Shown piece by piece: positions 1,964 to 17,734 of a stretch of DNA of 24,457 nt (the first letter of the stretch is position 1; every line of letters starts with the position of its first letter). The position numbers were made by a program, and so were the translations under genes. This stretch comes from a virus (lineage: Duplodnaviria; Heunggongvirae; Uroviricota; Caudoviricetes), in the IMG/VR virus record IMGVR_UViG_2534681674_000009. One strand, 5' to 3'. The notes below the pieces were generated by a model, which was given only the letters and a program-made list of their open reading frames with translations, was not told the origin of the DNA and did no database searches.

Positions 1964-3263
1964 TCTCCCGCATATTGCCAGCATGGCTTTTAATGAGCCG
2001 CTGATGCTTGAACCCGCCTATGCGCGGGTTTTCTTTTGTGCGCTTGCAGGCCAGCTTGGGATCAGCCGCCTGACGGATGCAGTATCCGGCGACAGCCTGA
2101 CTGCCGGAGAGGCACCCGCGGCGCTGGCGTTATCCGGTGATGATGACGGACCACGACAGGCCCGGAGTTATCAGGTCATGAACGGCATCGCCGTGCTGCC
2201 GGTGTCCGGTACGCTGGTCAGCCGGACGCGGGCGCTGCAGCCGTATTCGGGGATGACCGGTTACAACGGCATTATCGCCCGTCTGCAACAGGCTGCCAGC
2301 GACCCGATGGTGGACGGCATTCTGCTCGATATGGACACACCGGGCGGAATGGTGGCGGGAGCATTTGACTGTGCTGACATCATCGCCCGTGTGCGTGACA
2401 TAAAACCGGTATGGGCGCTGGCCAACGACATGAACTGCAGTGCAGGTCAGCTGCTTGCCAGCGCCGCCTCCCGGCGTCTGGTCACGCAGACCGCCCGGAC
2501 AGGCTCCATCGGCGTCATGATGGCTCACAGTAATTACGGTGCTGCCCTGGAGAAACAGGGCGTGGAAATCACGCTGATTTACAGCGGCAGCCATAAGGTG
2601 GATGGCAACCCCTACAGCCATCTACCGGGTGATGTCCGGGAAACACTGCAGTCCCGGATGGATGCAACCCGCCGGATGTTTGCGCAGAAGGTGTCGGCAT
2701 ATACCGGCCTGTCCGTGCAGGCTGTGCTGGATACCGAGGCTGCAGTGTACAGCGGTCAGGAGGCCATTGATGCCGGACTGGCTGATGAACTTGTCAACAG
2801 CACCGATGCGATCACCGTTATGCGTGATGCACTGGATGCACGTAAATCCCGTCTCTCAGGAGGGCGAATGACCAAAGAGACTCAATCAACAACTGTTTCA
2901 GCCACTGCTTCGCAGGCTGACGTTACTGGCGTGGTGCCAGCGATGGAGGGCGAAAACGCCAGCGCGGCGCAGCCGGACGTGAACGCGCAGATCACCGCTG
3001 CGGTTGCGGCAGAAAACAGCCGCATTATGGGGATCCTCAACTGTGAGGAGGCTCACGGACGCGAAGAACAGGCCCGCGTGCTGGCAGAAACCCCCGGTAT
3101 GACCGTGGAAACGGCCCGCCGCATTCTGGCCGCAGCACCACAGAGTGCACAGGCGCGCAGTGATACTGCGCTGGATCGTCTGATGCAGGGGGCACCGGCA
3201 CCGCTGGCTGCAGGTAACCCGGCATCTGATGCCGTTAACGATTTGCTGAACACACCAGTGTAA
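1944..3263 (+). CDS. C: Prohead protease / minor capsid protein gpC
   Basis: GTG start at 1944 after RBS GAGGAGGA (1931-1938); 439 aa beginning (V)TAELRNLPHIASMAFNEPLMLEPAYAR, as in lambda C; overlaps the end of B in another frame. Confidence 0.93.
2658..3263 (+). CDS. Nu3: Scaffolding protein Nu3 (in-frame internal start within C, shared stop)
   Basis: In-frame ATG at 2658 (MDATRRMFAQKVSAYTGLSVQ...) sharing the C stop, giving the 201-aa nested product known from lambda; start inferred by homology, not by a strong RBS. Confidence 0.65.
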   Translation: MDATRRMFAQKVSAYTGLSVQAVLDTEAAVYSGQEAIDAGLADELVNSTDAITVMRDALDARKSRLSGGRMTKETQSTTVSATASQADVTGVVPAMEGENASAAQPDVNAQITAAVAAENSRIMGILNCEEAHGREEQARVLAETPGMTVETARRILAAAPQSAQARSDTALDRLMQGAPAPLAAGNPASDAVNDLLNTPV

Positions 3264-3272
3264 GGGATGTTT

Positions 3273-3605
3273 ATGACGAGCAAAGAAACCTTTACCCATT
3301 ACCAGCCGCTGGGCAACAGTGACCCGGCTCATACCGCAACCGCGCCCGGCGGATTGAGTGCGAAAGCGTCTGCAATGACCCCGCTGATGCTGGACACCGC
3401 CACCCGTAAGCTGGTTGCGTGGGATGGCACCACCGACGGTGCTGCCGTTGGCATTCTTGCGGTTGCTGCTGACCAGACCAGCACCACGCTGACGTTCTAC
3501 AAGTCCGGCACGTTCCGTTATGAGGATGTGCTCTGGCCGGAGGCTGCCAGCGACGAGACGAAAAAACGGACCGCGTTTGCCGGAACGGCAATCAGCATCG
3601 TTTAA
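3273..3605 (+). CDS. D: Head decoration protein gpD
   Basis: [27 protein letters not shown]...[10 protein letters not shown], near-identical to recalled lambda D (110 aa); ATG at 3273 chosen over 3267 by RBS spacing and lambda N-terminus. Confidence 0.95.
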
Positions 3606-3623
3606 CCTGACCCTTCATCACTA

Positions 3624-3648
3624 GAGGCCGCCTGTGCGGTCTTTTTTT
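3624..3648 (+). terminator. Putative rho-independent terminator between D and E
   Basis: Stem GGCCGC / GCGGTC (one G.U pair) with CTGT loop, followed by a T7 run (3642-3648). Confidence 0.45.
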
Positions 3649-3661
3649 ACGGGATTTTTTT

Positions 3662-3937
3662 ATGTCGATGTACACAACCGCCCAGCTGCTGGCGGCAAAT
3701 GAGCAGAAATTTAAGTTTGATCCGCTGTTTCTGCGTCTCTTTTTCCGTGAGAGCTATCCCTTCACCACGGAGAAAGTCTATCTCTCACAAATTCCGGGAC
3801 TGGTAAACATGGCGCTGTACGTTTCGCCGATTGTTTCCGGTGAGGTTATCCGTTCCCGTGGCGGCTCCACCTCTGAATTTACGCCGGGATATGTCAAGCC
3901 GAAGCACTTAGCATGGCTTTCTGAGGCTTTCGTGTAG
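3662..3937 (+). pseudogene. E: Major capsid protein gpE, N-terminal fragment (interrupted after codon ~82 by the integrated element)
   Basis: MSMYTTAQLLAANEQKFKFDPLFLRLFFRESYPFTTEKVYLSQIPGLVNMALYVSPIVSGEVIRSRGGSTSEFTPGYVKPKH matches lambda E residues 1-82; after 3906 the frame reads 9 unrelated codons (LAWLSEAFV) and stops. Confidence 0.9.
3897..3906 (+). repeat. Left junction direct repeat (putative attL core) AGCCGAAGCA
   Basis: Identical 10-mer recurs at 16507-16516; phage-derived sequence ends here on the left and resumes there on the right. Confidence 0.65.
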
Positions 3938-4035
3938 TTGCTGGTTTTTACACTTAATCTTTTGATAATAAAGAATAAGTTTATCTGGTGCTTTCACTGA
4001 ATTTTCCTCGTTATCTGTGTGTTGCAATCATCTCT

Positions 4036-4055
4036 GTATTGCAGCTTGTATTGCT
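4036..4055 (+). repeat. Tandem GTATTGCAG / GTATTGC motifs (putative integrase arm-type sites, left arm)
   Basis: TGTATTGCAGCTTGTATTGC upstream of int; the same motif recurs in tandem at 16409-16432 near the right junction. Confidence 0.4.
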
Positions 4056-4231
4056 TTTTGGGGCTAAAAATGGCTGGCGAGAACAAACTGAGCGACAAAG
4101 CGCTTAAAGGATATCTGGGGAAACCCAGAGAAAAGCAGATCACCATTGCTGATGGAAAGGGGCTTTCTATTCGTGTGAGTACTAAAGGGTGAACCGCCCC
4201 GGGTTTCCTGGAGAGTATTTTATCTGTGAAC

Positions 4232-5122
4232 TCAGGCTGCCAGATCATTATTTCCGATGGAAGCATAATAAGCTTTTTCTGCTTCTGCCGGAGGAATATG
4301 GCCCAGCCTTTCCAGCAATCGTCGATTGTTATACCAGTCCACCCACGTTAGTGTGGCCAGTTCCACTTCTGTCCGGTTTTTCCAGCTATTACGGTGTATT
4401 ACCTCCGCTTTGTAAAGACCATTGATGCTCTCAGCCATCGCGTTGTCATACGAGTCGCCAGTACTCCCTGTTGATGCCAGTAATCCGGCTTCCTTAAGCC
4501 GCTGCGTGTAGGCCAGCGATACATACTGAGAACCTTTATCACTGTGATGGATTGTGCCGGACGGCCGACGGGCCCACAACGCCTGCTCCAGTGCATCCAG
4601 CACGAATGTTGTTTCCATGGATGATGAGACCTGCCATCCCACGATGTATCCGGCGAACACATCAATGATGAACGCCACATAAACGAAGCCCTGCCATGTG
4701 CTTACCCAGGTAAAATCAGCCACCCACAACTGGTCTGGACGTTCTGCCACGAACTGACGGTTTACGCGGTCGCATGCGGCAACGGCTTTCCGGCTGACGG
4801 TAGTGCGGACCTTTTTACCCCGGAGAACACCGGCAAGTCCCATAACTGCCATGAGACGTGCCACAGTGCATCTGGCCACTCTGATACCTTCCCGTAACAA
4901 CTGACGCCAGACTTTACGCACACCGTATACCTGGTGATTTTCATCGTATACGCGCTGTATCTCTTTCTTCAGCCAGTCATCGTGCTGCGCACGGGCACTG
5001 CGTTTATCCGGATGATGTCGCTGTTGCTGACAATGGTAATACGTTGACGGGGCAATATGCAGTTCGCTGCATACCGGTCCGACCCCGTACTGCTCACGCA
5101 GCTTATCCAGCAGTGGCATCAT
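4232..5122 (-). CDS. IS629-like transposase OrfB (DDE catalytic domain; normally made as OrfAB by frameshifting)
   Basis: [53 protein letters not shown]...[22 protein letters not shown]... matches recalled IS629/IS1203 OrfB. Confidence 0.9.
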
Positions 5123-5446
5123 TTTTCCAGAGGCGGTCGAACTCCGCCTTCGCAAAATAAGCGGAAGCCTGGCGAAGGATATCGTTACTGCGGCGCAGTT
5201 CACGATTTTCACGTTCCAGCTCTTTCAGACGCTGACGTTCAGCGCTGGTGAGCCCACCATCACCGCCCCCGGTATCCCGCTCATGCTGGCGAACCCAGAC
5301 ACGCAGAGTCTCCGGCGTACAGCCAATCTTTGGGGCAATGGAACTACGATTGCCGCCCACTGTGAGTCATATTCATCCTGACTTTCCAGAACCATACGAA
5401 TCGCCCGCTGACGGACTTCGGGGGAAAAACGAGTATTTTTAGTCAT
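5103..5446 (-). pseudogene. IS629-like OrfA, apparently frameshifted
   Basis: N-terminal [33 protein letters not shown] is in one frame (5225-5446) and the remainder [30 protein letters not shown]...[10 protein letters not shown] in another (5103-5360); junction near 5345-5350. Confidence 0.55.
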
Positions 5447-6620
5447 CCTGTTTACCTCTTTCTCAGGGAGTTTAGTCTCCAGGATTTCCGGGGCGGTTCA
5501 GGGGCTGTGAGCTTTGTTTTCTTCTACAGGTTAGCAGGTGGCCGGGCTGCTCCGGTCTGGCTAACGTTGGGTAAATATCCTGATATGTCACTCAAACAGG
5601 CAAGGGAAAAGCGCGACGAGTGCCGTGGTTGGTTGGCTGACAAACGTGATCCGCGTATCCAGATTAAGATTCAGGCTGAAGAACGCTTAAAGCCGGTTAC
5701 AGTGGAGGATGCACTAAATTACTGGTATGAAAATTACTGTAAGGTGCGTCGTAAAACTCATGCTGTAACGCTTGGCAGATTTCGAAAGCATATCTTTCCC
5801 TATATCGGTCATTTGCCCGTAAATGACACTCACCTATATGAATGGCTGGACTGTTTTGACCGAATTAAACGTAATGCACCAGTTATGGCGGCGTATGTTT
5901 TTTCTGACACTAAATTAGCTCTTCGTTTTTGTCGGGTACGCCAGTACGCGACGTGTGATGCTTTAAAGGATTTGCGCATGAGTGATGTGGGGCAGATTGC
6001 AGGTAAGCGGGATCGGGTTCTGGATGAAGCCGAACTCGGCCAGCTCTGGAAGGCAATTTTTGTCGAGCCTGATTTAAAACTAATGTCTGAATACACGCGA
6101 AAAATGTTTGTGCTTTGTACAGTATTTGGATGTCGAATGAGTGAAGCCCGATTATCAGAATGGAGCGAATGGAATCTCGAAAGTTGGGTTTGGACTGTAC
6201 CAAAAGATCACTCAAAAACTGGTGTTGAAATCGTCAGACCAGTACCTGAAATTCTACGACAGTGGGTAACGGATGTTCACGAAGAGACAAAACATACTGG
6301 TTATGTGCTGGGAAGTCTGCGAATTAGAGAAAGCGTAAGCAAGATTGGGGGGAAAATCGGTAAACGTTTGGGCCATGAAAAACAATGGTCACTACACGAC
6401 CTTAGAAGAACGCTATCTACTCATCTAAGTGATCTCGGTGTTGAATTTTATGTAGTAGAACAACTGTTAGGCCATGCGCTACCTGGCGTGGCAGGTGTTT
6501 ACAACCGGAGTAAGTTTATGGCTAAAAAACTGGATGCTCTGGAACTCTGGACTACATATCTCAATAGCATCGCAGGTGCTGATTCAAAAGTGACAATCCT
6601 CAAACAAAAGGTTGGTTAAC

Positions 6621-6848
6621 ATGAAAAAAATGGCAATTGTTGATAAAAAGGGTCTGGAGTACATTCCTAACATTGACCGAATGATCCGTGAGAAAGAATG
6701 TCGGGAGCTAACCACTCTTGCGAACAGCACACGCTGGAAGCTGGAGAAGGAAGGAAAATTTCCTAAGCGGATCAAGATTGGTTCCACTGCTGTTGCATAT
6801 CGTCTTTCAGAAGTGCAGGCATGGATTCGAGGTGAGTGGGTAGTTTAA
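6621..6848 (+). CDS. alpA: AlpA-like DNA-binding protein (putative excision/regulatory factor)
   Basis: Small basic ORF directly downstream of int with an HTH-like segment ECRELTTLANSTRWKLEKEGKFPKRIKIGSTAVAYRLSEVQAWI, typical of AlpA/Xis-like proteins next to P4-type integrases; ATG 6621 preferred over TTG 6612. Confidence 0.75.
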   Translation: MKKMAIVDKKGLEYIPNIDRMIREKECRELTTLANSTRWKLEKEGKFPKRIKIGSTAVAYRLSEVQAWIRGEWVV

Positions 6849-6874
6849 ATTATCTCAGAATAAAATATTATGAA

Positions 6875-6908
6875 TTACTGATTTGAGAATTTGTACTCAA
6901 ATCAGTAA
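6875..6908. terminator. Bidirectional hairpin between convergent genes
   Basis: Perfect 13-bp inverted repeat TTACTGATTTGAG ... CTCAAATCAGTAA with 8-nt loop, in an AT-rich spacer between the alpA-like (+) and membrane protein (-) genes. Confidence 0.55.
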
Positions 6909-6917
6909 TAACATTCT

Positions 6918-7454
6918 TTATAAGAGATTAAATCCAAATAAAGAGTAATCATATACCGGGGTGCATTGCATCCCACTGAATATGCTGATGTTTTTTTCTG
7001 TTTCTATCCTTTTTTCAATAAGTTGTTGTATATTTTTACAGTACAATTTGTGTGTGATGTTATTATCGTAAGCCTGATATAGCAACGTCAATGTTGATGC
7101 TATGAAACATGCAGAAAGAAAATGAACTAGTACATGTGAGCGTTTTTTGGTTGTCCATGATGCATTCGCTTGTGAAATATAAATCATTCTGAGAATGATA
7201 ATGATGATAGACAGTAACAGACCACTCAATAAAATAAGTATTGGGTTTGCGTATTTAATTAATGGTTGAGAGCAAAAAACTATTATAGCTCCTGTGACTG
7301 CGTATGAGAAAAAGGAGTAATTAAACTTCTTACTCCTTCTCTCAAGTATTTTAATTTCATCTTGTGTGGGGGTTTTAGATGCCTCTAATATAAGTTTATT
7401 AAATGTTTCTGTTATCTTGTTTTTTGTGTTTGTGGCTATTTTTTTTAGATTCAT
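6918..7454 (-). CDS. Hypothetical membrane protein (AT-rich accessory gene)
   Basis: 178-aa ORF with hydrophobic segments (YSFFSYAVTGAIIVFCSQPL, ILILLSGLLLSIIIIILRMIYI, VLVHFLSACFIASTLTLLY); base composition much more AT-rich than neighbours; no recognisable family. Confidence 0.55.
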   Translation of the reverse strand: MNLKKIATNTKNKITETFNKLILEASKTPTQDEIKILERRSKKFNYSFFSYAVTGAIIVFCSQPLIKYANPILILLSGLLLSIIIIILRMIYISQANASWTTKKRSHVLVHFLSACFIASTLTLLYQAYDNNITHKLYCKNIQQLIEKRIETEKNISIFSGMQCTPVYDYSLFGFNLL

Positions 7455-7804
7455 AGCATTCTAACTCCCTTAACTTATTTATTACTTTCTCTTTATGATA
7501 AGAGAGGGGAATGACTTGGTAAAGTGATTTGTCATTAATAATGATAATCCTTGCGATAAATATTTCTGCAAGTTATTTACCTGTTTGTTGCTATCTTGTT
7601 AAGCGTTGGGTGTGGTTTATGTTTGGAGCGACTTTATTTAATCGTGATTTTATGGATTTATATTTATATCCTGTAAGATAAGCGCATGTTAGTTCAGGAG
7701 TAGTGTCAGATAAAATTATTCGGAGTAGAACTACCTTTTCTGTTTATTGCCAGTATTTACATAGCAATGCGCCGTAGTTACTCACATCACGGCGCTGATA
7801 CTAA

Positions 7805-8110
7805 TTATTCAGATTCTTTGGCTTTACGCCGCTGGAGTTCTTCACGAGCGACGGCTACGAGTTGCCCGATTTCCTCCGCTGCCTTGATGCCGATTTGTTC
7901 GACCTTAGCTAAGGCATCCAGTGAAGACACGAGGGGATTTTCTCCGCTTCCTTCTGCCTGGCGGCGGGCGATTTCACCGCGCATGGCGGTTACGATAAAT
8001 CCGGCATTGCTTTCACCGTCCAGCTTAACGGATTCCATCCCTTGCATAACATCTAGTGGGACTCTGACAGTTGTCAGTTGTGATTTTGCGTTTTTGTTAG
8101 CCGTTGCCAT
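7805..8110 (-). CDS. Hypothetical protein, possible regulator (divergent from downstream operon)
   Basis: 101-aa ORF; sits head-to-head with the 8301+ operon across an intergenic region containing repeated operator-like half-sites. Confidence 0.5.
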   Translation of the reverse strand: MATANKNAKSQLTTVRVPLDVMQGMESVKLDGESNAGFIVTAMRGEIARRQAEGSGENPLVSSLDALAKVEQIGIKAAEEIGQLVAVAREELQRRKAKESE

Positions 8111-8300
8111 TTCTGAAACTCCTAATCATCGGTGTGTTTCAGTATACACAAAAAAAGAAATACAAAAAGCCTTGACGTGTGTTTCATGCGCTCATAACAT
8201 GAAACACACCGAAAGGATTGTTGAAATACAAAGAGCAACGCCCCGCAGTGCTGGGAACACATACGGGGCGTCTAACCAACAACGTAAACTAGGAGCCGTT
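8111..8300. promoter_or_regulatory. Divergent promoter/operator region
   Basis: TTGACG (8172-8177) then 17 bp then TAACAT (8195-8200); three copies of GTGTTTCA half-site (8133-8140 and 8179-8186 direct, 8200-8207 inverted), the latter two forming a palindrome over the -10; also inverted repeat GACGCCCCG...CGGGGCGTC at 8239-8273. Confidence 0.45.
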
Positions 8301-8498
8301 ATGGTTGCTGTAAATCATATACCACACCTTGTACACACACAAACGGCCTTTGTGTGGCGTTTTCTGGCACTGAGTGCCGGAGAATCTCAAATCATCCACG
8401 TAACCGCCTGGACGGAACGCGAAGCGCGTAGCCGTTGCCCGTCCGGTTGTGTTGCTGTATTCGCTGCAAAAATCCGCCAGGGAGTGAGTCATGCTTAA
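8301..8498 (+). CDS. Small hypothetical protein (possibly Icd-like)
   Basis: ATG at 8301 preceded by AGGAG (8291-8295); 65 aa MVAVNHIPHLVHTQTAFVWRFLALSAGESQIIHVTAWTEREARSRCPSGCVAVFAAKIRQGVSHA; family assignment is a weak recollection only. Confidence 0.45.
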   Translation: MVAVNHIPHLVHTQTAFVWRFLALSAGESQIIHVTAWTEREARSRCPSGCVAVFAAKIRQGVSHA

Positions 8499-8676
8499 AA
8501 CCTTCCGTGTATTTGCCCGAGCTGTTAACCCAATAGGCCACACAATTGGTATCGCTCAGAATGTGAAGGCTGTTAATGTTCAGACGGCTATTGCTGCGGT
8601 GAGAAGCGAATCATCAGAATATGGCTTATCACAAGTCATTATTTCAGCAGTGTATGAATTAAAAGAGGTGCATTAA
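8491..8676 (+). CDS. Small hypothetical protein
   Basis: 61-aa ORF whose start overlaps the preceding stop (translational coupling). Confidence 0.4.
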   Translation: MLKTFRVFARAVNPIGHTIGIAQNVKAVNVQTAIAAVRSESSEYGLSQVIISAVYELKEVH

Positions 8677-8834
8677 TGCAGGAAATCACATTACACGAAG
8701 CCGCTGAACGTGCGCACCAGACAGAAATTATTGCCGCCTTCTTGAGGTATACCCGAACAAAATTACAGATGCTGATATATCCGCACTGGCGAGCCTACTG
8801 GCGCGTCTTTCGGGAAGTGTCGCTAGTTTTTTGA
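8676..8834 (+). CDS. Small hypothetical protein (52 aa)
   Basis: ATG at 8676 overlapping the previous stop (TAATG), preceded by a strong RBS AGAGGTG (8664-8670); below the ORF-track length cutoff. Confidence 0.4.
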   Translation: MQEITLHEAAERAHQTEIIAAFLRYTRTKLQMLIYPHWRAYWRVFREVSLVF

Positions 8835-8866
8835 TTGAGGAAGAAAGTAAGCTGGTGGGGGATTAA

Positions 8867-9088
8867 ATGAATACAGAACGGGAAGTCTTTTTTAAATTGT
8901 TAGCATGTGCAGAAAGTTCATTAACTTTAAATAATTCAGCAAAAGCAATATTAAATATGTGGCTTGATTGCATAAATGACAATGAAGATGCAAATATTGC
9001 TTATGGCCTGTTGTCACTTATTGATGAAGCAGCAGAAAAACTCAATGACGCAATAAATAGTGCCCTGCTATCAAATAAGTCGAGTTAA
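8867..9088 (+). CDS. Small hypothetical protein (AT-rich)
   Basis: 73-aa ORF with GGGGGA RBS upstream; no recognisable family. Confidence 0.4.
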   Translation: MNTEREVFFKLLACAESSLTLNNSAKAILNMWLDCINDNEDANIAYGLLSLIDEAAEKLNDAINSALLSNKSS

Positions 9089-9105
9089 GTCGAGGAATAA
9101 ATAAT

Positions 9106-9405
9106 ATGGAAATGAAAAATTCTGGCTTTATTGCCAGCGGCCCCGCTCGGCCTGAATTTATGAACGGCGATATTTACCGCGATAAATACGGCGGCACGGT
9201 AACGATTAAAGGCGTGGCAGAACGGCGCATCACTTACCGTCGTGAGGGGTATAGCTATGACTGCGTGATGCCTGTTTATCAGTTCCGGCGTGATTTTTCC
9301 CTGGTATATGCCGCACCCCGCAGTAAGCCCATCAGCAGGGAAAAAGCGCGGGGAAACATCCAGAAAATGAAAAGCATGATTAACGCATTCAGGGGCAAAA
9401 AATGA
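9106..9405 (+). CDS. Hypothetical protein upstream of primase
   Basis: 99-aa ORF with GAGGA RBS; stop overlaps the primase start (ATGA). Confidence 0.5.
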   Translation: MEMKNSGFIASGPARPEFMNGDIYRDKYGGTVTIKGVAERRITYRREGYSYDCVMPVYQFRRDFSLVYAAPRSKPISREKARGNIQKMKSMINAFRGKK

Positions 9406-11153
9406 AACTGGCACCGAACTTAAAAAAACAGCCACGCGACAGACTGACAGAGATAATCATCTTTGCAGGTAGTGATGCGTGGAGCCATGCGAAAGAGTGG
9501 CAGGAATGGGCGGGTAAACATATTGCCGCCGACGATGTGCCGCCTGTCGTGTTGGCTGATGAGCAACTGAAAAACATCACCGATTACCGGATCATTGATG
9601 AAGATCGTCAGTGTGTGCGTGTTTACCGCGCAGGACATATCACAGAGCACAGCATGACGCAGATTGTTACGTTACTGGCTGTGGCTGGAGTGAAGACCGT
9701 ACACGAATACGCGGGGATTACTGACACCAGCCCAGTGGATTTATCCGACCAGTTGCCGCGACTCAAAGAGGAATGCGAGCGTGGGGAAAGCCTGGTGCTT
9801 AATCTTCCGACGAAGCAAAAGGCGCAACTTTCACAGATGGCAGACAGTGAGCGCGCGCAGCTGCTTGCCGAGCGCTTTGATGGCGTTTGTGTGCATCCGG
9901 AAAGTGAAATCGTTCACGTATGGCGCGGCGGGGTATGGTGTCCGATCAGCACAATGGAGCTGAGCCGCGAAATGGTGGCGATCTATTCAGAGCACAGGGC
10001 CACTTTCAGCAAACGCGTGATCAATAACGCCGTTGAAGCGTTAAAAGTTATTGCCGAACCAATGGGCGAGCCGTCCGGCGATTTGCTGCCGTTCGCCAAT
10101 GGTGCGCTTGACCTGAAAACGGGGGAATTTTCCCCGCACACGCCGGAGAACTGGATCACCACGCACAACGGCATTGAGTACACGCCACCAGCACCAGGGG
10201 AGAACATCCGCGATAACGCGCCAAACTTTCATAAATGGCTTGAGCACGCAGCCGGAAAAGACCCGCGCAAGATGATGCGTATATGTGCCGCGCTGTACAT
10301 GATTATGGCGAACCGGTACGACTGGCAGATGTTCATTGAGGCCACCGGAGACGGGGGAAGCGGTAAGAGTACATTTACCCATATTGCCACCCTGCTTGCT
10401 GGCAAACAGAACACCGTAAGCGCAGAGATGACATCACTCGATGATGCAGGAGGGCGTGCGCAGGTTGTCGGGAGTCGTCTTATCGTCCTTGCCGATCAGC
10501 CGAAATATACGGGGGAAGGCACGGGCATCAAGAAAATCACGGGAGGCGATCCCGTTGAAATTAACCCGAAATATGAGAAGCGATTCACGACGATAATAAG
10601 GGCGGTGGTACTGGCAACCAATAACGACCCGATGATCTTTACCGAACGGGCCGGAGGTGTGTCACGCCGTCGGGTGATTTTCCGGTTCGACAACATTGTA
10701 AGGGAGGACGAAAAAGACAAGGAATTACCGGAAAAGATAGCGGCAGAAATCCCCGTAATTATCCGCCGCTTGCTGGCTAATTTTGCTGACCCTGAAAAGG
10801 CACGGGCTTTATTACTGGAACAGCGTGACGGTGATGAAGCTCTGGCAATAAAGCAGCAAACGGATCCGGTTGTTGAGCTTTGCGCGGCGCTGGAGTTTCT
10901 GGAGGAAGCTCGTGGGCTAATGATGGGCGGTGGTGGTGACACCGTGAAGTACACGACCAGAAACAGCCTTTACCGTGTCTATATGGCCTTCATGGCATAT
11001 ACAGGAAAGGGGAAATGTTTGAGCGTGAATGAGTTCGGAAAGGCTATGAGGTCAGCGGCGAAAGTTTACGGATATGAATATATTACGCGAAAAGTTAAGG
11101 GAGTCACGCAGACCAACGCAACGACTACTGATGATTGCGATGCGTTTTTATAA
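9402..11153 (+). CDS. Primase-helicase, D5 / P4-alpha C-terminal-like (SF3 NTPase)
   Basis: 583-aa ORF with Walker A GDGGSGKST and Walker B-like hydrophobic run ending in D (RLIVLADQ); architecture resembles satellite/P4 replication initiators; immediately followed by iterons. Confidence 0.8.
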   Translation: MKLAPNLKKQPRDRLTEIIIFAGSDAWSHAKEWQEWAGKHIAADDVPPVVLADEQLKNITDYRIIDEDRQCVRVYRAGHITEHSMTQIVTLLAVAGVKTVHEYAGITDTSPVDLSDQLPRLKEECERGESLVLNLPTKQKAQLSQMADSERAQLLAERFDGVCVHPESEIVHVWRGGVWCPISTMELSREMVAIYSEHRATFSKRVINNAVEALKVIAEPMGEPSGDLLPFANGALDLKTGEFSPHTPENWITTHNGIEYTPPAPGENIRDNAPNFHKWLEHAAGKDPRKMMRICAALYMIMANRYDWQMFIEATGDGGSGKSTFTHIATLLAGKQNTVSAEMTSLDDAGGRAQVVGSRLIVLADQPKYTGEGTGIKKITGGDPVEINPKYEKRFTTIIRAVVLATNNDPMIFTERAGGVSRRRVIFRFDNIVREDEKDKELPEKIAAEIPVIIRRLLANFADPEKARALLLEQRDGDEALAIKQQTDPVVELCAALEFLEEARGLMMGGGGDTVKYTTRNSLYRVYMAFMAYTGKGKCLSVNEFGKAMRSAAKVYGYEYITRKVKGVTQTNATTTDDCDAFL

Positions 11154-11164
11154 AAAATGGCAAT

Positions 11165-11400
11165 GGTTATCTACCTTGTCTACCTGACTGAAATAAAATA
11201 CTTTTATTTCAATGTATTAATGCAGGTAGATAACTATTTTTCACTGTCTACCTGTTATCTACCTTATCTACCCATTTTTGTAGACAGGTAAGGAGACGGG
11301 TAGAGATGAGGTAGACAGCTATTTGGGGCTGTCTACCTCCCTGAAACCCGCGCCATTACTGGCCTGATAACTAATCAGGTAGACAAGGTAGACAAGGTGG
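11165..11400. repeat. Iteron cluster (putative origin of replication)
   Basis: At least ten copies of (T/G)TCTACC / GGTAGAC in both orientations (e.g. 11168-11185, 11247-11273, 11280-11318, 11331-11337, 11377-11397) around an AT-rich block (11190-11222), directly downstream of the primase gene. Confidence 0.7.
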
Positions 11401-11442
11401 TGGTGCACAAAAAACTTTTTAAACGAGGGGGTAAAAATAAAA

Positions 11443-11685
11443 ATGCACACATCAGGAAAACTGAACAAACATATAAAGCCACATTACCGCGCCCTTGATA
11501 TGGCTGAACACTGGCTAAGGGTGGCGATTAAGGCAATAGACCGCAACGCCGGGGAAGGATACGCGAAAGCACATCCCGAACTGATAAGCGCATTCATGAC
11601 AACGGCGGCTGCAAACTTTGCCACGCTGACCGAACGGGAGATTGCCGAAGCGGAGGAAGTGACAACCATCAATATTAAGTCCTGA
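11443..11685 (+). CDS. Hypothetical protein
   Basis: 80-aa ORF with GAGGGGG RBS upstream. Confidence 0.45.
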   Translation: MHTSGKLNKHIKPHYRALDMAEHWLRVAIKAIDRNAGEGYAKAHPELISAFMTTAAANFATLTEREIAEAEEVTTINIKS

Positions 11686-11696
11686 GAGCAGGCAGC

Positions 11697-12146
11697 ATGA
11701 CGGCGCAAATAGCAGCTTACGGGCGGCTGGTGGACGACCCACAGGTAAAACATACCAGCAAGGGAACACCCATGACACTGGCACGGATGGCGGTATCTTT
11801 GCCATGCAGCCAGGCAGATGACGGAACGGCGACGATGTGGTTATCTGTGCTGGCGTTTGGCAGACAAGCCGACACGCTGGCAAAGCATCACAAAGGCGAA
11901 CTCCTGAGCGTGGCGGGTAATATGCAGGTGAGCCAGTGGACTGGACAGAACGGTGAAACGCGGCAGGGCTGGCAGGTTATCGCAGACAGCGTAATCAGTG
12001 CGCGAACGGTGCGACCGGGCGGCAAAAAAGATCAACAGGGTCAGGCTACTGACGCACTGAACAGAGCAAAACAACAGGCAGATCAGCAAGGAAGCCATCC
12101 ACCAGTGGGAGATAATGAGCAATGGGGAGATGATATTCCGTTTTAA
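11697..12146 (+). CDS. ssb: Single-stranded DNA-binding protein
   Basis: 149 aa with OB-fold-like N-terminal part, Gly/Gln-rich linker and acidic C-terminal tip ending DDIPF, the hallmark SSB tail. Confidence 0.8.
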   Translation: MTAQIAAYGRLVDDPQVKHTSKGTPMTLARMAVSLPCSQADDGTATMWLSVLAFGRQADTLAKHHKGELLSVAGNMQVSQWTGQNGETRQGWQVIADSVISARTVRPGGKKDQQGQATDALNRAKQQADQQGSHPPVGDNEQWGDDIPF

Positions 12147-12163
12147 ATATTGCCAATAAAAAA

Positions 12164-12190
12164 GGCCGGAAAAAAAAATAAATTTTCCGG
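12164..12190. terminator. Hairpin after ssb (possible terminator)
   Basis: CCGGAAAA ... TTTTCCGG stem with A-rich loop; A/T-rich on both sides. Confidence 0.35.
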
Positions 12191-12365
12191 CATGCTACAT
12201 AAATCCAGACCAAAGGGAGTGAAGATATTAACACTAATTATCCGTGCTGAAGTTGTCATCCCAAAACTTTATACAACATTGCACTCGGTTGCATGTATTC
12301 GCATGACAAATATCGGTGATAGCATATATCCACAATTATTTTTAATGAATGCAAAGAGGATGCGT

Positions 12366-13406
12366 ATGGTTGATTTATATTCGCCTACCCAGCTTGTACA
12401 GGTGGTTAATGCTGTAGATGTACAAAAACAACTAAATGCGTTGTTTACCAGTTTGTTTTTTACTCGCTCGGTAATGTTTGAATCGCGCGATATTATTCTT
12501 GATACAATCGACGATCCAAATATCCCAATTGCAGCGTTTTGTTCTCCTATGGTGGGTAGTAAAGTTTCACGTGACGAAGGGTACGAATCAAAAACAATTC
12601 GTCCAGGCTATATGAAGCCGAAAAGCAGCATTGATCCAAATAAGTTAGCTGTGCGCCCTGCTGGTGTATCACCTGAGCAATACAATGCTTTTGGAGCGCG
12701 TAATATTAAAGTTAAACAGGCGATTGTAAATCAGGCTAAAGCTATTCGTGCACGTATTGAATGGCTTGCCGTTCAGGCAATCACAACGGGGAAAAATATC
12801 ATTGAGGGCGATGGTATTGAACGTTATGAGCTGGACTGGAATATTAAACCACAAAATATCATCACTCAGTCTGGCGGTGCTGAGTGGTCAGGTAAGGATA
12901 AAGAAACTTTTGATCCAAATGATGATATTGAGAGCTACGCAGAATTTAGTGAGGGCGTCACTAATATCATCATTATGGGCGGTAATGTATGGAAGAAATA
13001 CCGTTCATTCAGAGCGATAAAAGAGGCTCTGGATACCCGTCGTGGTTCTAATTCCGAACTGGAAACGGCCCTTAAAGACCTTGGTGATTCGGTGAGTTTT
13101 AAAGGGTATATGGGCGATGTTGCGATTGTTGTATACAGCGGGCGTTATACCGACGAGGACGGAACTGAAAAACATTTCCTTGATCCTGATTTGATGGTGC
13201 TTGGCAATACGGCTCTTCAGGGGATTGTCGCCTATGGCGGTATTCAGGATCCGGAGCTAATCCGAATGGGGCTGACTAAAGCCGAACTTGCACCGAAAAA
13301 CTATATTGTGCCTGGTGATCCGGCTATTGAATATGTGCAGACACATTCAGCACCACAGCCAATACCGGCCCGCATCAATCGTTTTGTTACCGTTCGCATT
13401 GGCTAA
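12366..13406 (+). CDS. Major capsid protein, lambda gpE homologue encoded by the element
   Basis: Start at ATG 12366 (RBS AAGAGG 12354-12359). Product aligns along its length with lambda E, e.g. ITQSGGAEWSGKDKETFDPNDDIESYA...RRGSNSELETALKDLGDSVSFKGYMGDVAIVVYSG vs lambda ITQSGGTEWSKRDKSTYDPTDDIEAYA...RRGSNSELETAVKDLGKAVSYKGMYGDVAIVVYSG; clearly a diverged paralogue, not a duplicate. Confidence 0.85.
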   Translation: MVDLYSPTQLVQVVNAVDVQKQLNALFTSLFFTRSVMFESRDIILDTIDDPNIPIAAFCSPMVGSKVSRDEGYESKTIRPGYMKPKSSIDPNKLAVRPAGVSPEQYNAFGARNIKVKQAIVNQAKAIRARIEWLAVQAITTGKNIIEGDGIERYELDWNIKPQNIITQSGGAEWSGKDKETFDPNDDIESYAEFSEGVTNIIIMGGNVWKKYRSFRAIKEALDTRRGSNSELETALKDLGDSVSFKGYMGDVAIVVYSGRYTDEDGTEKHFLDPDLMVLGNTALQGIVAYGGIQDPELIRMGLTKAELAPKNYIVPGDPAIEYVQTHSAPQPIPARINRFVTVRIG

Positions 13407-13415
13407 GGGGGAGCA

Positions 13416-13757
13416 ATGGCTACTCATTACACTGAACTCATGTCTGGCACTGAAGCACTGGTTACTACGCTGGGGATATTTTCAGCCAATAAAGGGGTAA
13501 TACCTGCGTTTACGCCACTGATGCAGGAAGATGCAACTGGTGCGCTAGTGGTATGGGATGGAACGAGCGCAGGCAAAGCGGTTTATGTTTCCGCTGTACA
13601 AATCGACACAGCGAAAAAAACACAGGCACAGGTTTATAAGACAGGTGTTTTAAATGTTGATGCTCTGAACTGGCCTGAGTCTGTAAGAGAACTGTCGGCA
13701 AAGGTTGCCGCGTTTGTTGGCTCAGGTATTTCTGTTCAGCCGCTGGCTCGTGTGTAA
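13416..13757 (+). CDS. Head decoration protein, lambda gpD homologue encoded by the element
   Basis: 113 aa; ...LVVWDGTSAGKAVYVSAVQ...YKTGVLNVDALNWPE...AAFVGSGISV parallels lambda D ...[19 protein letters not shown]...[15 protein letters not shown]...[11 protein letters not shown]; RBS AAGGGGGA. Confidence 0.8.
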   Translation: MATHYTELMSGTEALVTTLGIFSANKGVIPAFTPLMQEDATGALVVWDGTSAGKAVYVSAVQIDTAKKTQAQVYKTGVLNVDALNWPESVRELSAKVAAFVGSGISVQPLARV

Positions 13758-13768
13758 AGGGGGATACA

Positions 13769-14152
13769 ATGCAGAATGATTACAATGACCTTAAGCCAAT
13801 TGCCGAAATGATGTACCCGAATCCAGCTGTAGAGGAATTAAAAGCTATCGCTGACAAAATGTGTTTAAGCGAGCGCCTTGTTGATATGAATCAGGTGATG
13901 GAAATTACAACCCTGAGTCGGCGTACACTGCTAAACCTTGAGGCTAGTGGAGAGTTCCCGGAGCGTGTGCAGGTTACGGAAGGGCGTAAGGCCTGGTATT
14001 TAAGTGAAGTGATCGACTGGATAAATAATATTCCTCGCGCTTCTGAATATTGCCGCGTACCTGTCCCAAAAAAGCCAGATGCGGCGCTATGCCTCAAGAT
14101 TGAGCGTGTACGCCGCAATGCACGGGATGGTCGCTATAAGCTGATTGGTTGA
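13769..14152 (+). CDS. Second AlpA-like HTH protein
   Basis: 127 aa; segment MNQVMEITTLSRRTLLNLEASGEFPERVQVTEGRKAWYLSEVIDWINN resembles AlpA/MerR-type HTH; RBS AAGGGGGA. Confidence 0.6.
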   Translation: MQNDYNDLKPIAEMMYPNPAVEELKAIADKMCLSERLVDMNQVMEITTLSRRTLLNLEASGEFPERVQVTEGRKAWYLSEVIDWINNIPRASEYCRVPVPKKPDAALCLKIERVRRNARDGRYKLIG

Positions 14153-14194
14153 TGAAATTAGGGCCCGCTCTGGCTGGCGGGTCCTTTCCGGCGA

Positions 14195-14340
14195 TCTGAC
14201 AGGCTACGGGGCGTCAGGCGCGCGGGTTTTCTCTATTTATGAGCATTTTAAGGGGACTGGTGGTGGTTTTGTTGTTCGCTATATCTGTATGAATAATAAG
14301 AGAAAAATACAATCAATACACCAACCTGAAACAGTAATTA
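14195..14340 (+). other. cos site (cosN plus cosB-like region) of the element
   Basis: GACAGGCTACGGGGCGTCAGGCGCGCGGGTTTTCTCTATTTATGAGCATTTT closely parallels recalled lambda cos GACAGGTTACGGGGCGGCGACCTCGCGGGTTTTCGCTATTTATGAAAATTTT; lies directly upstream of a Nu1-like gene as in lambda. Confidence 0.65.
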
Positions 14341-14353
14341 AGTTGTGGTATCA

Positions 14354-14896
14354 ATGAAATTACACCTGATGAACAAAAAAAACATGGCAAAAAGTTGCCG
14401 TGTAAGCGCCACTGCGTTCGATAAGTGGGGAGTGATTCCCGTCGAGCGTAAGGGCCGTGAGGCGTTCTATGATGTTGCCAGTGTAATAGATAATCGGGTT
14501 AACAATGCAATCAGCCAGATTACAAACGAAACGGGCGATATTGATGACGATGAACTTTTACGCGTCAGGATCAGATTACTGACAGCACAGGCAGAGGCGC
14601 AGGAGCTTAAAAACGAGCGCGAACGCGGCGACGTTATTGATACAGAGTTTTGTATGTATGTTCTTTCCAAACTGGCGAGTCAGATTTCATCTATCATGGA
14701 CAGCCTGCCGCTTACCATGCAAAGGCGCTTCCCACAGATGACTCCGGCTATGCTGGATGGACTTAAAAAGGAAGTGGCTAAAGCCTGTAATGCCAGTGCC
14801 GGCGTTGCTGACAACCTCCCACAGATACTGGCTGATTATCTGATGGAAAGTACAGGAAACGTACCGGATAAGTTGCAGCTGAATAAGGATAAGTAA
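14354..14896 (+). CDS. Terminase small subunit, lambda Nu1-like
   Basis: ...RLLTAQAEAQELKNERERGDVIDTEFCMYVLSKLASQISSIMDSLPLTMQRRFP matches lambda Nu1 ...RLTRAQADAQELKNARDSAEVVETAFCTFVLSRIAGEIASILDGLPLSVQRRFP; start codon uncertain (ATG 14354, 14369 or 14384). Confidence 0.8.
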   Translation: MKLHLMNKKNMAKSCRVSATAFDKWGVIPVERKGREAFYDVASVIDNRVNNAISQITNETGDIDDDELLRVRIRLLTAQAEAQELKNERERGDVIDTEFCMYVLSKLASQISSIMDSLPLTMQRRFPQMTPAMLDGLKKEVAKACNASAGVADNLPQILADYLMESTGNVPDKLQLNKDK

Positions 14897-14907
14897 CGTA
14901 GTACGCT

Positions 14908-15183
14908 ATGACTGAATCCGAACTACTGAAAGTAATCTGCTATGCTGGTGGAGTCAGCCACCAGCATGACGAACAGGCCACGCAGCCGGGCAGTGTCACC
15001 GCTGAAAATTACGCTCGTGTGGTTGCTGAGGTTATGTGGCGTGACGGTATAGAACTGAACGGACAGGATTGCTTAGTCATCCGCACCAAAGTGCTGGCTA
15101 TACTGGCAGCTAGGCGGAGGCAGGGACAACGCCAGAACGTTGCATCGTACCAGTGGAAGAAGCCTGACAGACTGCGGCGATAA
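14908..15183 (+). CDS. Hypothetical protein downstream of terS
   Basis: 91-aa ORF; no recognisable family; weak RBS. Confidence 0.35.
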   Translation: MTESELLKVICYAGGVSHQHDEQATQPGSVTAENYARVVAEVMWRDGIELNGQDCLVIRTKVLAILAARRRQGQRQNVASYQWKKPDRLRR

Positions 15184-15337
15184 CTCTTTGATTTTCTCGA
15201 CGGCCCCAAAATGGGCCTTACCATAGCCAGCTAATAAATGAGCAAGCCTCAAAAGTGAGGTTTGTGGCCGTTTGGCCTATTCATATGCTAACTCGTTGAT
15301 ATTCCTGACGACGCAAATTTACGCCTTGTGGCTGGTA

Positions 15338-15363
15338 GTCGAATTGCAAATTTGCAACTCGAC
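15338..15363. promoter_or_regulatory. 26-bp near-perfect palindrome (putative operator)
   Basis: GTCGAATTGCAAATTTGCAACTCGAC, self-complementary except one position pair; intergenic between the terS module and the Abi-like gene. Confidence 0.35.
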
Positions 15364-15585
15364 TATGAAACTACAGGTAGTTTGGGTAGTAAAAGCAACA
15401 CACTGATTTTGGGGCTTCTTCGCGATACCTAATATTATGGTATCGGTGGAAGAGATATCGTTTCTCATAGGTTAGCACCGAGGGCGGAGTTCCGCCCTCA
15501 TCGAAAAATTGCTTACGAGTCGTCAAAATAAATTAATCGACTGAGTATAATGATTAACTAATTGCTCGTGTTACTTCATTATACG

Positions 15586-16347
15586 TTATTTCCCATCTTT
15601 AAGGTTTAACCAAGTGTTAATTAAAAAAAGAGCCATTGAGCCTGATAAATTTACTGCAAGTTCGGCATGCCTTGGGGATGGCTTAATTGATGAGCTGTTC
15701 GTTCCATGTGCATCACCGAGTTTATTACGAAGAGTACCTAACCCATTTACAACTGCAGAACAACCGCCGAGAATTTGTTTGAAGATATTTTCAGTATGTT
15801 GGTCGGCAGATAGGTTAAGTTCTTTTGAAAGAGTTTTATAAAGCTCTGACATTTCAATATTTTTATTATTATACTGAATGCCCATATCATCAAGAATGTG
15901 TTTGCAAACTGTTTCAAGAAGTGTTCTTGCGGAGGTTATCGCACCATCCGGATCTGTATGGCGCCGTTCAAGTGCTTTTATCCAAACGGCGTGGACTCCA
16001 TCCTCGTTAAACTTTCTTAATACATCAGATATGTCTTCATCCGCTGGAGCTTTATTTTTCCCTTCTAGATAGTCCAGCATCGGCTGAAATGCCTTATAAA
16101 TCAAATCTCTCCGGGGGGCATACTTTTCAGTCTTTTTTATAAATCCCCAAAATTCTTTTAGTGAGCGATTAGTTCTCACAAACTCTGGTAATAGCTGATG
16201 TAAAGGAGGATTTTGTAAGAAATATGTTCTTAGAAGCAAATAATCATTATTAGCTTCATCCTGGGCTCCTGTAGCTCTTGCAATTAGTATGTTTTGAAGC
16301 GCTACTGCGCGCTCTAGGTCATTTTGAAGGGTATCTATAATATTCAT
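15586..16347 (-). CDS. Abi-like protein with HEPN-type Rx4-6H motif (putative abortive-infection / defence effector)
   Basis: 253-aa ORF on the opposite strand at the element's right end; C-terminal LGTLRNKLGDAHG contains R-x6-H as in HEPN/Abi_C family proteins. Confidence 0.55.
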   Translation of the reverse strand: MNIIDTLQNDLERAVALQNILIARATGAQDEANNDYLLLRTYFLQNPPLHQLLPEFVRTNRSLKEFWGFIKKTEKYAPRRDLIYKAFQPMLDYLEGKNKAPADEDISDVLRKFNEDGVHAVWIKALERRHTDPDGAITSARTLLETVCKHILDDMGIQYNNKNIEMSELYKTLSKELNLSADQHTENIFKQILGGCSAVVNGLGTLRNKLGDAHGTNSSSIKPSPRHAELAVNLSGSMALFLINTWLNLKDGK

Positions 16348-16408
16348 AACAAATCTTTATTCACTTCATTTGTGGGTTGATAATTGAATGGTTTGTACAT
16401 TGATTTCT

Positions 16409-16432
16409 GTGTATTGCAGTGTGTATTGCAGC
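16409..16432 (+). repeat. Tandem GTGTATTGCAG repeats (putative integrase arm-type sites, right arm)
   Basis: GTGTATTGCAGTGTGTATTGCAGC, same motif as at 4036-4055. Confidence 0.4.
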
Positions 16433-16506
16433 ATAGCCATTCAGGTAAAGATTATGCTCTATTTTTCCTCTTATATCATTCACATACTTACACCATTGAC
16501 TCATGT

Positions 16507-16516
16507 AGCCGAAGCA
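16507..16516 (+). repeat. Right junction direct repeat (putative attR core) AGCCGAAGCA
   Basis: Identical to 3897-3906; downstream sequence TGAGGTGAATCCGCAGATGACC continues lambda E. Confidence 0.65.
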
Positions 16517-17297
16517 TGAGGTGAATCCGCAGATGACCCTGCGTCGCCTGCCGGATGAAGATCCGCAGAATCTGGCGGACCCGGCTTACCGCCGCCGTCG
16601 CATCATCATGCAGAACATGCGTGACGAAGAGCTGGCCATTGCCCAGGTCGAAGAGATGCAGGCAGTTTCTGCCGTGCTTAAGGGCAAATACACCATGACC
16701 GGTGAAGCCTTTGATCCGGTTGAGGTGGATATGGGCCGCAGTGCGGCAAACAACATCACACAGTCCGGTGGCACGGAGTGGAGCAAGCGTGACAAGTCCA
16801 CGTATGACCCGACCGACGATATCGAAGCCTACGCGCTGAACGCCAGCGGCGTGGTGAATATCATCGTGTTTGATCCGAAAGGATGGGCGCTGTTCCGTTC
16901 CTTCAAAGCCGTCAGGGATAAGCTGGATACCCGTCGCGGCTCTCATTCCGAGCTGGAGACAGCGGTAAAAGACCTGGGCAAAGCGGTGTCTTATAAGGGA
17001 ATGTATGGCGATGTGGCCATCGTCGTGTATTCCGGACAGTACGTGGAAAACGGCGTCAAAAAGAACTTCCTGCCGGACAACACGATGGTGCTGGGGAACA
17101 CTCAGGCACGCGGTCTGCGTACCTATGGCTGTATTCAGGATGCGGACGCACAGCGCGAAGGCATTAACGCCTCTGCCCGTTACCCGAAAAACTGGGTGAC
17201 TACCGGCGATCCGGCGCGAGAGTTCACCATGATTCAGTCAGCACCGCTGATGCTGCTGGCTGACCCTGATGAGTTCGTGTCCGTACAACTGGCGTAA
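16507..17297 (+). pseudogene. E: Major capsid protein gpE, C-terminal fragment (codons ~80-341)
   Basis: (PKH)EVNPQMTLRRLPDEDPQNLADPAYRRRRIIMQNMRDEELAIAQVEEMQAV...EFTMIQSAPLMLLADPDEFVSVQLA, near-identical to lambda E from residue ~83; no in-frame ATG, upstream in-frame TAG at 16506-16508. Confidence 0.9.
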
Positions 17298-17301
17298 TCA
17301 T

Positions 17302-17325
17302 GGCCCTTCGGGGCCATTGTTTCTC
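17302..17325 (+). terminator. Hairpin after E (possible terminator)
   Basis: GGCCC TTCG GGGCC followed by a T-rich tract ATTGTTTCTCT. Confidence 0.35.
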
Positions 17326-17338
17326 TGTGGATGAGTCC

Positions 17339-17734
17339 ATGACGAAAGATGAACTGATTGCCCGTCTCCGCTCGCTGGGTGAACAACTGAACCGTGATGT
17401 CAGCCTGACGGGGACGAAAGAAGAACTGGCGCTCCGTGTGGCAGAGCTGGAAGAGGAGCTTGATGACACGGATGACGCAGCCGGTCAGGACACGTCTGTC
17501 AGCCCGGAAAATGCGCTGACCGGACATGAAAATGAGGTGGTATCAGCACAGACGGATACCGTGACTGATACGGCTGCTCTGGTCACGGTTGTGGCACTGG
17601 TGACGCTGCATACCGATGCACTTCACGCCACGCGGGATGAACCTGTGGCATTTGTGCTGCCGGGAACGGCGTTTCGTGTCTCTGCCGGTGTGGCAGCCGA
17701 AATGACAGAACGTGGCCTGGCCAGAATGCAATAA
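17339..17734 (+). CDS. FI: DNA packaging protein gpFI
   Basis: MTKDELIARLRSLGEQLNRDVSLTGTKEELALRVAELEEELDD...GVAAEMTERGLARMQ, matching recalled lambda FI (132 aa); start at ATG 17339 rather than upstream ORF start. Confidence 0.9.
   Translation: MTKDELIARLRSLGEQLNRDVSLTGTKEELALRVAELEEELDDTDDAAGQDTSVSPENALTGHENEVVSAQTDTVTDTAALVTVVALVTLHTDALHATRDEPVAFVLPGTAFRVSAGVAAEMTERGLARMQ

Follow-up and report, generated by a model that had tools for sequence, protein, structure and literature searches.

The DNA stretch analysed here (hereafter the window) is the complete 24,457-bp contig AEZJ02000026.1 of assembly GCA_000194215.2, which starts just upstream of gpW and carries a lambdoid, Stx-phage-like late operon whose major capsid gene E is split by a satellite island. 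On the basis of sequence comparison this island was shown to be a helper-embedded phage-inducible chromosomal island (HE-PICI) of the site group E:Phage_cap_E:80, that is a satellite of approximately 11.3 kb, into which an insertion sequence (IS) of 1.3 kb was inserted later. The island genes run predominantly in the direction of the surrounding helper genes, and it is probable that late read-through of the co-oriented HE-PICI from the helper late operon offers the best explanation of this arrangement. Helper-embedded PICIs were described by Tommasini, Mageeney and Williams in 2023, with Eco567.11capE (11capE) at E:Phage_cap_E:80 as the prototype (PMC10111431), and both the co-orientation and the late read-through hypothesis were already published there for the same element type: the named genes of 11capE have the same direction as the late genes of the helper, and the late transcript was proposed to extend into the integrase, the capsid and other genes (PMC10111431). 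The finding is thus correct, but it is not new. The initial annotation of the window had proposed that read-through from the helper late promoter would couple island expression to helper induction without a dedicated sensor. The geometry needed for this is present and the same hypothesis has been published, nevertheless the words on the sensor were too strong, since the island has an alpA gene, the counterpart of which is auto-activating in EcCICFT073, as well as a promoter of its own with three operator-like motifs.

The helper genes follow the lambda order W-B-C-D-E-FI-FII-Z-U-V-G-T-H-M-L with the whole set on the + strand, as seen from the open reading frames (ORFs), the Pfam matches and the gene calls, and all the tail genes are located downstream of the insert. 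The co-orientation reported in the initial annotation was confirmed by ORFs and Pfam: the primase, ssb, capsid, decoration, both alpA-like and the terS genes are on the + strand, like the flanking late genes. Altogether 16 of the 19 native island genes have this orientation, which means 7,785 coding bases on the + strand versus 1,605 on the - strand. The exceptions on the - strand had not been mentioned before; these are the genes at 6918-7454 and 7805-8110, the Abi_C/AbiJ-like gene at 15586-16347 and the IS at 4190-5500. The GC skew is positive over the island and both flanks, the IS excepted, and the GC content is about 30-56% in the island versus 50-64% in the flanks.

The island comprises 12,610 bp (3907-16516) and splits E at about codon 80 between 10-bp direct repeats of AGCCGAAGCA, a 10-mer that is found at 3897-3906 and at 16507-16516 and nowhere else in the window. 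When 3662-3906 and 16517-17297 are joined, an E protein of 341 amino acids is obtained with no interruption. The empty site could be recognized in the Stx1a-converting phage Stx1_9793, which aligns to window positions 1-3906 (99.8% identity) and 16507-18372; the two alignments share exactly the 10-bp core AGCCGAAGCA, and the insertion is therefore a clean site-specific event. The island limits proposed earlier, 3907-16506, proved to be exact to the base by this comparison, subject to the core copy which is counted. Stop codons in the three + frames (TAG, TGA, TAG) are found at most about 35 nt past the attL core, within 3907-3937, thus the truncated product of the interrupted gene should end before int, whatever its frame.

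Further features of the attachment sites place the island in the HE-PICI class. A doubled TGTATTGC begins 131.5 bp after the core centre on the attL side, and another ends 81.5 bp before the core centre on the attR side; the window has five copies of TGTATTGC, four of them in these two doublets, versus a chance expectation of 1.09. The motif published for HE-PICIs is a doubled, co-oriented tgTGTATTGCantgTGTATTGCa, with distances from the attP centre of 81 +/- 2 bp on the upstream side and 132 +/- 2 bp on the downstream side (PMC10111431), and the spacing of the doublets in the window, 81.5 and 131.5 bp, is in agreement with these values. In the parts of the supplement of PMC10111431 that were compared, HE-PICIs of E:Phage_cap_E:80 are given with this 10-bp identity block and with the attL sequence of the window, and no entry for the window contig was found in those parts. 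Gene fragments lie on either side of the island inside a prophage late gene, which is one of the defining features of HE-PICIs. The int gene, which encodes a tyrosine integrase, stands next to attL, points inward and is followed by alpA (Pfam); int is disrupted by the IS, and the placement of int-alpA in the HE-PICI clade was based on domain content and order, cluster identity and the location of the junction with E. The zones Integration (int, alpA), Replication (DUF4222, primase, iterons, ssb) and Late (capsid, decoration, cos, terS) follow each other in this order. The published scheme is Integration, Bro, Replication, Late; in the window the second zone consists of the Icd-like gene, the YlcI/YnfO-like gene and ORFs of unknown function, and no Bro-N domain was detected in it. 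For the prototype 11capE, excision and replication were shown experimentally (PMC10111431).

Two other types of satellite were considered. A capsid-forming PICI (cf-PICI), which has a complete head module and takes only the tails from its helper, was rejected, as the island is without portal, protease and large terminase. P4-type immunity RNAs (C4, isrK), the effect of which would be overridden by a polymerase resistant to terminators, were found neither in the whole window at the Rfam gathering thresholds nor at E <= 1 over 6800-9200, and the only match of the Rfam scan of the window was the IS3 frameshift pseudoknot.

For one insertion, co-orientation has a 50% chance, and the orientation is fixed for a given integrase and att pair. 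The int-alpA pair was found in 176 of 5,426 complete E. coli genomes, with a colinear E'-int junction in 173 of the 176, which is consistent with an orientation fixed by the integrase and its att pair. As a sample of independent sites, 80 integrase relatives were taken with one genome per species, among which 13 loci had the doubled motif upstream of int, and the reading frame abutting the predicted core was classified by Pfam. L015 and L020 (Pfam-unclassified) and L017, L018 and L021 (not submitted) were left out of the orientation count. The recognizable late-gene fragments upstream of a motif-bearing int were on the same strand as int at 4/4 sites, namely in Phage_cap_E (Kosakonia, Cedecea), CLP_protease (Rahnella), Phage_portal_2 (Erwinia) and Phage_TTP_13 (Arsenophonus). 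Two loci of Xenorhabdus (L023, L026) are apparently off-target insertions in chromosomal genes, an AraC/GyrI-like gene on the - strand (opposite) and an EamA gene on the + strand (co-oriented). Co-orientation was reported at 14/14 sites in the literature (PMC10111431). Since it exceeds chance only across independent sites, i.e. in the 4/4 of our sample and the 14/14 of the literature, it is across these that co-orientation is a real and recurrent property of the element class. Additionally, some database integrases of the clade carry a terminase fragment as a fusion (Phage_Nu1 plus integrase) or bear the name of one ('terminase large subunit (fragment)'), which reflects insertions in packaging genes. 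The proteins noted along with these loci are P0004, P0051 and P0073.

With the lambda Q protein the polymerase passes intrinsic as well as Rho-dependent terminators over the whole late operon, and stx genes as well as other inserts downstream of pR' are expressed via Q read-through. In the uninterrupted Stx1a phage, Phage_antitermQ, stx1AB, the lysis genes, Nu1 and A are located upstream on the same strand, and quuD is in the same place in the complete composite prophage of strain 200177. Between D and E of the window there is a terminator-like hairpin with a run of seven U, consequently only an antiterminated polymerase should reach the island from the left. This terminator was missed by the consensus terminator scan and is revealed by folding. 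The known timing of excision points in the same direction: excision of 11capE was seen no earlier than about 2 h into induction, when the composite had already been excised and replicated (PMC10111431), and such late satellite excision is compatible with late expression of int and alpA. In EcCICFT073, AlpA is auto-activating, the expression of alpA goes up only when the helper phage is present, and over-expression of AlpA alone triggers excision and replication.

In a plausible model, which is also the most economical one, int and alpA are primed by read-through, and the island promoters are then driven by AlpA. Upon induction of the helper, the Q-modified polymerase coming from pR' would ignore the D-E terminator and enter the island, where int and alpA would be the first genes met by it. 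AlpA would then switch on the own promoters of the island, hence read-through might serve as the primer and not as the sole driver. The same transcript would run on through the capsid, decoration and terS genes of the island and out into the helper genes from FI to the tail, and late excision would restore E. If read-through is true, a single transcript could time the excision of the satellite, delay the helper capsid and still deliver the helper tails.

Several points weigh against late read-through. Regarding the state of the helper, its Q and pR' fall outside the 24,457-bp contig, many HE-PICI helpers are truncated (PMC10111431), and in the relative MDR_56 an IS stands in place of the O-P-Q region. 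Among the papers that mention helper-embedded satellites, PMC10111431 included, no RNA data were found for any HE-PICI, and the paper on the LF82 prophage contains nothing on an embedded satellite. Read-through would have to pass the antisense IS of 1.3 kb as well as three genes in antisense orientation. Over 3000-18000, the promoter-like matches numbered 24 versus 21.5 +/- 5.6 in shuffled sequence and the terminator-like matches 19 versus 16.5 +/- 4.2, and with counts at chance level these scans speak neither for nor against transcription units inside the island. Furthermore, with a promoter-operator region of its own and with alpA, trans-activation could suffice for the island.

This last point belongs to a rival explanation, according to which the island responds in trans, as ordinary Gram-negative PICIs do: alpA would be induced by some product of the helper, AlpA would activate its own expression, and the island's own promoters would drive the + operon. 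Co-orientation would then keep the FI-to-tail genes transcribable and avoid head-on collisions and antisense RNA. A divergent control region is indeed located upstream of the + operon, with a sigma-70-like promoter found by the promoter scan (TTGACG-17-TAACAT, 8172-8200, + strand) and three copies of the GTGTGTTTCA motif (10-13 bp; also TCGGTGTGTTTCA) at 8129-8141, 8177-8186 and, inverted, at 8200-8212, which together look like an operator set for some repressor. Besides this region, the helper-dependent rise and the auto-activation of alpA in EcCICFT073 agree with switch-on in trans, and so does the position of every tail gene downstream of the insert. However, int and alpA are directly behind attL, with only 163 bp from the core to the start of int, taken up mostly by the surroundings of the arm motif, so that any polymerase leaving E' must transcribe them. 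We regard switch-on in trans as a serious rival, if an unlikely one, and the two models are not mutually exclusive.

Alternatively, the co-orientation might be a neutral by-product of the origin of the att site, if captured late genes share the direction of int and if insertion was guided by homology or the att site evolved from captured helper sequence; insertions would then be co-oriented in every case, and read-through would bring no benefit. The island does contain homologues of E, D and Nu1 and a cos site, all in the direction of int, and captured late-gene clusters were reported, in one case with captured segments abutting the E:80 site (PMC10111431). On the other hand, the island capsid is only 41% identical to that of the helper, the att-homologous stretch in the island capsid gene differs (AAGCCGAAAAGCAGC), and the insertion is a clean site-specific one at the 10-bp core; the clean junction and the low capsid identity make a neutral origin less likely. 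The co-orientation extends to sites in portal, protease and tail-tube genes, and a neutral by-product appears quite improbable to us.

The copy of the satellite in the window is itself damaged. The IS cuts int after codon 40, within the arm-binding domain, therefore the satellite is probably unable to excise alone. The transposase of the IS is on the - strand, with an ALIL frameshift pseudoknot at 5048-5163 on the same strand, and the element is 95.8% identical to an annotated IS1203 copy. The rejoined integrase of 411 amino acids is 100% identical to P0001, an E. coli cluster of 1,098 members; int is intact at 411 amino acids in all eight related islands, and the IS is not in the island of strain 200177, the int-to-14249 segment of which is otherwise 99.9% identical. 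Judged from this gene structure, the satellite of the window is probably locked in E, and E permanently split, unless integrase is supplied in trans. Read-through could still express the genes of the window copy but could probably not yield a free satellite. A polymerase travelling on the + strand would meet, in the IS, 1.3 kb of antisense sequence that is not translated, where an ordinary polymerase would be prone to Rho termination and a Q-modified one would not.

It could also be argued that the composite of the window is a decaying remnant: should the rest of the prophage be defective, there would be no late transcription, and the co-orientation would be a relic. The IS inside int, its absence from the nearly identical island of strain 200177 and the intact int of the eight related islands are in line with decay, truncated helpers are common, and among the complete E. 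coli genomes (5,426) the best coverage of the window does not exceed 81%. In contrast, the other island ORFs and the flanking late ORFs of the window are all intact, and the left flank shares 99.8% identity with the sequence record of a Stx1a-converting phage. Decay to a relic is rather unlikely in our view. A very improbable further reading is a late operon locked by the IS and permanently fused, where the satellite genes for capsid, decoration protein and small terminase would be expressed in replacement of helper E by read-through dependent on Q. If this was true, the locked operon with its variant cos might represent a first step to a chimeric phage, or it might be a domesticated particle producer combining satellite heads with helper tails. 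In EcCICFT073 the homologous capsid and decoration genes are dispensable for interference and transfer.

The flanks of the helper are mosaic. The left flank (1-3906) is 99.8% identical to the Stx1a-converting phage and 98.4% identical to the prophage of strain 200177, and the right flank (16507-24457) has 95-97% identity to the Stx1a phage and only 76-85% to strain 200177; one satellite type thus occupies helpers with different tail modules.

The cos site of the island was located through alignment to the helper cos region. Its cosN, GGGCGTCAGGCG at 14209-14220, differs from the helper cosN in 5 of 12 bases, and the flanks of the island cos match the helper cos. The lambda-type cosN is GGGCGGCGACCT; a search of the window for GGGCGGCGACCT with at most two mismatches gave one chance match only, in gene H. 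The composite loci L001 and L002 contain both cosN types, and among 10 related E. coli islands 9 have the island type. The near-complete match (99.9%) with the island of strain 200177 ends about 30 bp past cosN, at 14249-14250, to the right of which there are an intact terS and Abi_C in the window versus a terS pseudogene and DUF2971 in strain 200177. This change of content suggests that modules may have been exchanged at or near cos.

The features of the window are collected in Table 1. The iteron field is likely to be the satellite replication origin, as its place just 3' of the primase gene matches that of PICI origins. The hairpin between alpA and the convergent gene has folding energies of -17.7 kcal/mol on the + strand and -19.2 kcal/mol on the - strand (z-scores -5.2 and -5.9), with no clear U tract on either strand. 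No PADLOC matches were obtained for the - strand unit at 6918-8110. The ORF at 8676-8834 encodes 52 amino acids here versus 63 in the near-identical island of strain 200177, which suggests a premature stop in the window copy. An ORF of 243 amino acids on the + strand (7767-8498) was rejected as a gene, having no family matches and overlapping the annotated YlcI/YnfO-like gene on the - strand and the Icd-like gene on the + strand.

The right-end place and the antisense orientation of the Abi_C/AbiJ-like gene are kept in 8/8 related islands (L003-L010). In related loci the slot after alpA carries varying cargo, mostly antisense (a protein of 178 amino acids of unknown function; putAbiC plus HicB-like), and in L006 a co-oriented CAP12-PCTIR_TIR gene. 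Defence-type cargo seems to be kept outside the main direction of transcription.

Table 1. Features of the window in order of position, with strand and the basis of the assignment
Feature	Position	Strand	Basis and remarks
gpW	159-365	+	Pfam gpW; helper late gene
Portal B	362-1963	+	Pfam Phage_portal_2; helper late gene
S49 protease/scaffold C-Nu3	1944-3263	+	Pfam Peptidase_S49; helper late gene
Decoration D	3267-3605	+	Pfam HDPD; helper late gene
Intrinsic-terminator-like hairpin with U7	3623-3651	+	between D and E; 9-bp stem, -12.3 kcal/mol, stem directly followed by UUUUUUU
E 5' fragment	3662-3937	+	Pfam Phage_cap_E profile positions 1-78; 10 island-encoded codons, then stop
attL core AGCCGAAGCA	3897-3906	+	E codons 79-82
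Doubled TGTATTGC, attL side	4035-4054	+	putative arm-type site
Tyrosine integrase, first 40 codons	4070-4189	+	called as 40-aa gene; ends at TGA within IS inverted repeat
IS3-family element (IS1203/IS629-like), 1,311 bp	4190-5500	-	Pfam rve and HTH_21; inverted repeats; GGG target duplication
Integrase, codons 41-411	5504-6619	+	Pfam Phage_integrase; Arm-DNA-bind_3 match from profile position 33
alpA (excisionase/activator family)	6621-6848	+	Pfam Phage_AlpA, E = 3e-15
Hairpin, 14-bp stem	6874-6909		between convergent alpA and - strand gene
178-aa protein of unknown function	6918-7454	-	gene call; annotation of identical gene in strain 200177
YlcI/YnfO-like 101-aa protein	7805-8110	-	gene call; phrog_6522 for the unit 6918-8110; annotation of identical gene in strain 200177
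Divergent control region	8129-8212		between YlcI/YnfO-like gene and Icd-like operon
Icd-like gene	8301-8498	+	PHROG match; annotation of 99.9% identical island L001
Small ORFs	8491-8676, 8676-8834, 8867-9088	+	PHROG matches; L001 annotation
DUF4222 gene	9106-9405	+	Pfam DUF4222
Primase/helicase	9402-11153	+	Pfam D5_N, DUF5906, Pox_D5
Iteron field	11162-11398		many GGTAGACA/TGTCTACC copies in both orientations; repeat search
80-aa ORF	11443-11685	+	phrog_1231
ssb	11697-12146	+	Pfam SSB
E-like major capsid gene	12366-13406	+	Pfam Phage_cap_E; protein 41% identical to helper E
D-like decoration gene	13416-13757	+	Pfam HDPD; protein 39% identical to helper D
Second AlpA-family helix-turn-helix gene	13769-14152	+	Pfam Phage_AlpA; phrog_2790
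Island cos-like site	14177-14250	+	86% identical to helper cos region
Nu1-like small terminase (terS)	14345-14896	+	Pfam Phage_Nu1, E = 1e-24; 36% to helper-type Nu1
91-aa ORF	14908-15183	+	phrog_1561
Abi_C/AbiJ-like cargo gene	15586-16347	-	Pfam Abi_C; PADLOC AbiJ, E = 2e-21
Doubled TGTATTGC, attR side	16410-16429	+	motif doublet
attR core AGCCGAAGCA	16507-16516	+	second core copy
E 3' fragment	16517-17297	+	in frame with 5' fragment; 16521-17297 = Phage_cap_E profile positions 94-328
FI, FII, Z, U, V, G, T, H, M, L	17300-24292 (FI 17300-17734)	+	ORF listing, Pfam, gene calls

Only helper-embedded satellites offer the possibility of a link in cis between satellite and helper. The window adds another example of HE-PICIs, one with a broken integrase and with its own cos/terS module, and not a new idea. 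Its closest likeness is to the 11capE group, with which it shares the target codon in E, the AGCCGAAGCA core, the attL sequence, the doubled TGTATTGC with its distances, the int-alpA start, the primase/ssb block, an E-like capsid of its own and the co-orientation with the helper late genes. Unlike in 11capE, int is split by an IS1203-like insertion in the window, and the right end of the island has the Abi_C/AbiJ-like cargo; the island also possesses its own Nu1-like terS and a variant cosN, whereas 11capE was described as being without terS.

EcCICFT073 resembles the island in the order int-alpA-primase, in the capsid and decoration homologues, in the origin 3' of the primase, in the lambdoid helper and in the activator AlpA. 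However, it occupies a chromosomal site separate from the helper, and its induction takes place in trans only, whereas the location of the window island in the late operon opens a route in cis. The stx genes and morons of the lambda lom and bor type are likewise foreign DNA downstream of pR', co-oriented and reached only by a terminator-resistant polymerase, but these are passive phage cargo, in contrast with the self-mobilising satellite of the window, which interrupts an essential gene of the helper and has its own integrase as well as functions for replication and packaging.

The P4/P2 pair shows likeness in a related integrase group, an AlpA/Vis-type regulator, a D5-type primase and the coupling of satellite late genes to the late programme of the helper. 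P4 differs in that its late promoters are trans-activated by P2 Ogr or P4 Delta, its immunity is based on the CI RNA, and it is not embedded in P2. Finally, regulated elements that control gene integrity, such as skin in Bacillus sigK, are similar in that an interrupted gene is restored by timed excision; in the window, however, the gene that is interrupted is part of a second mobile element, and it is the satellite and not the host cell that would profit from the timing.

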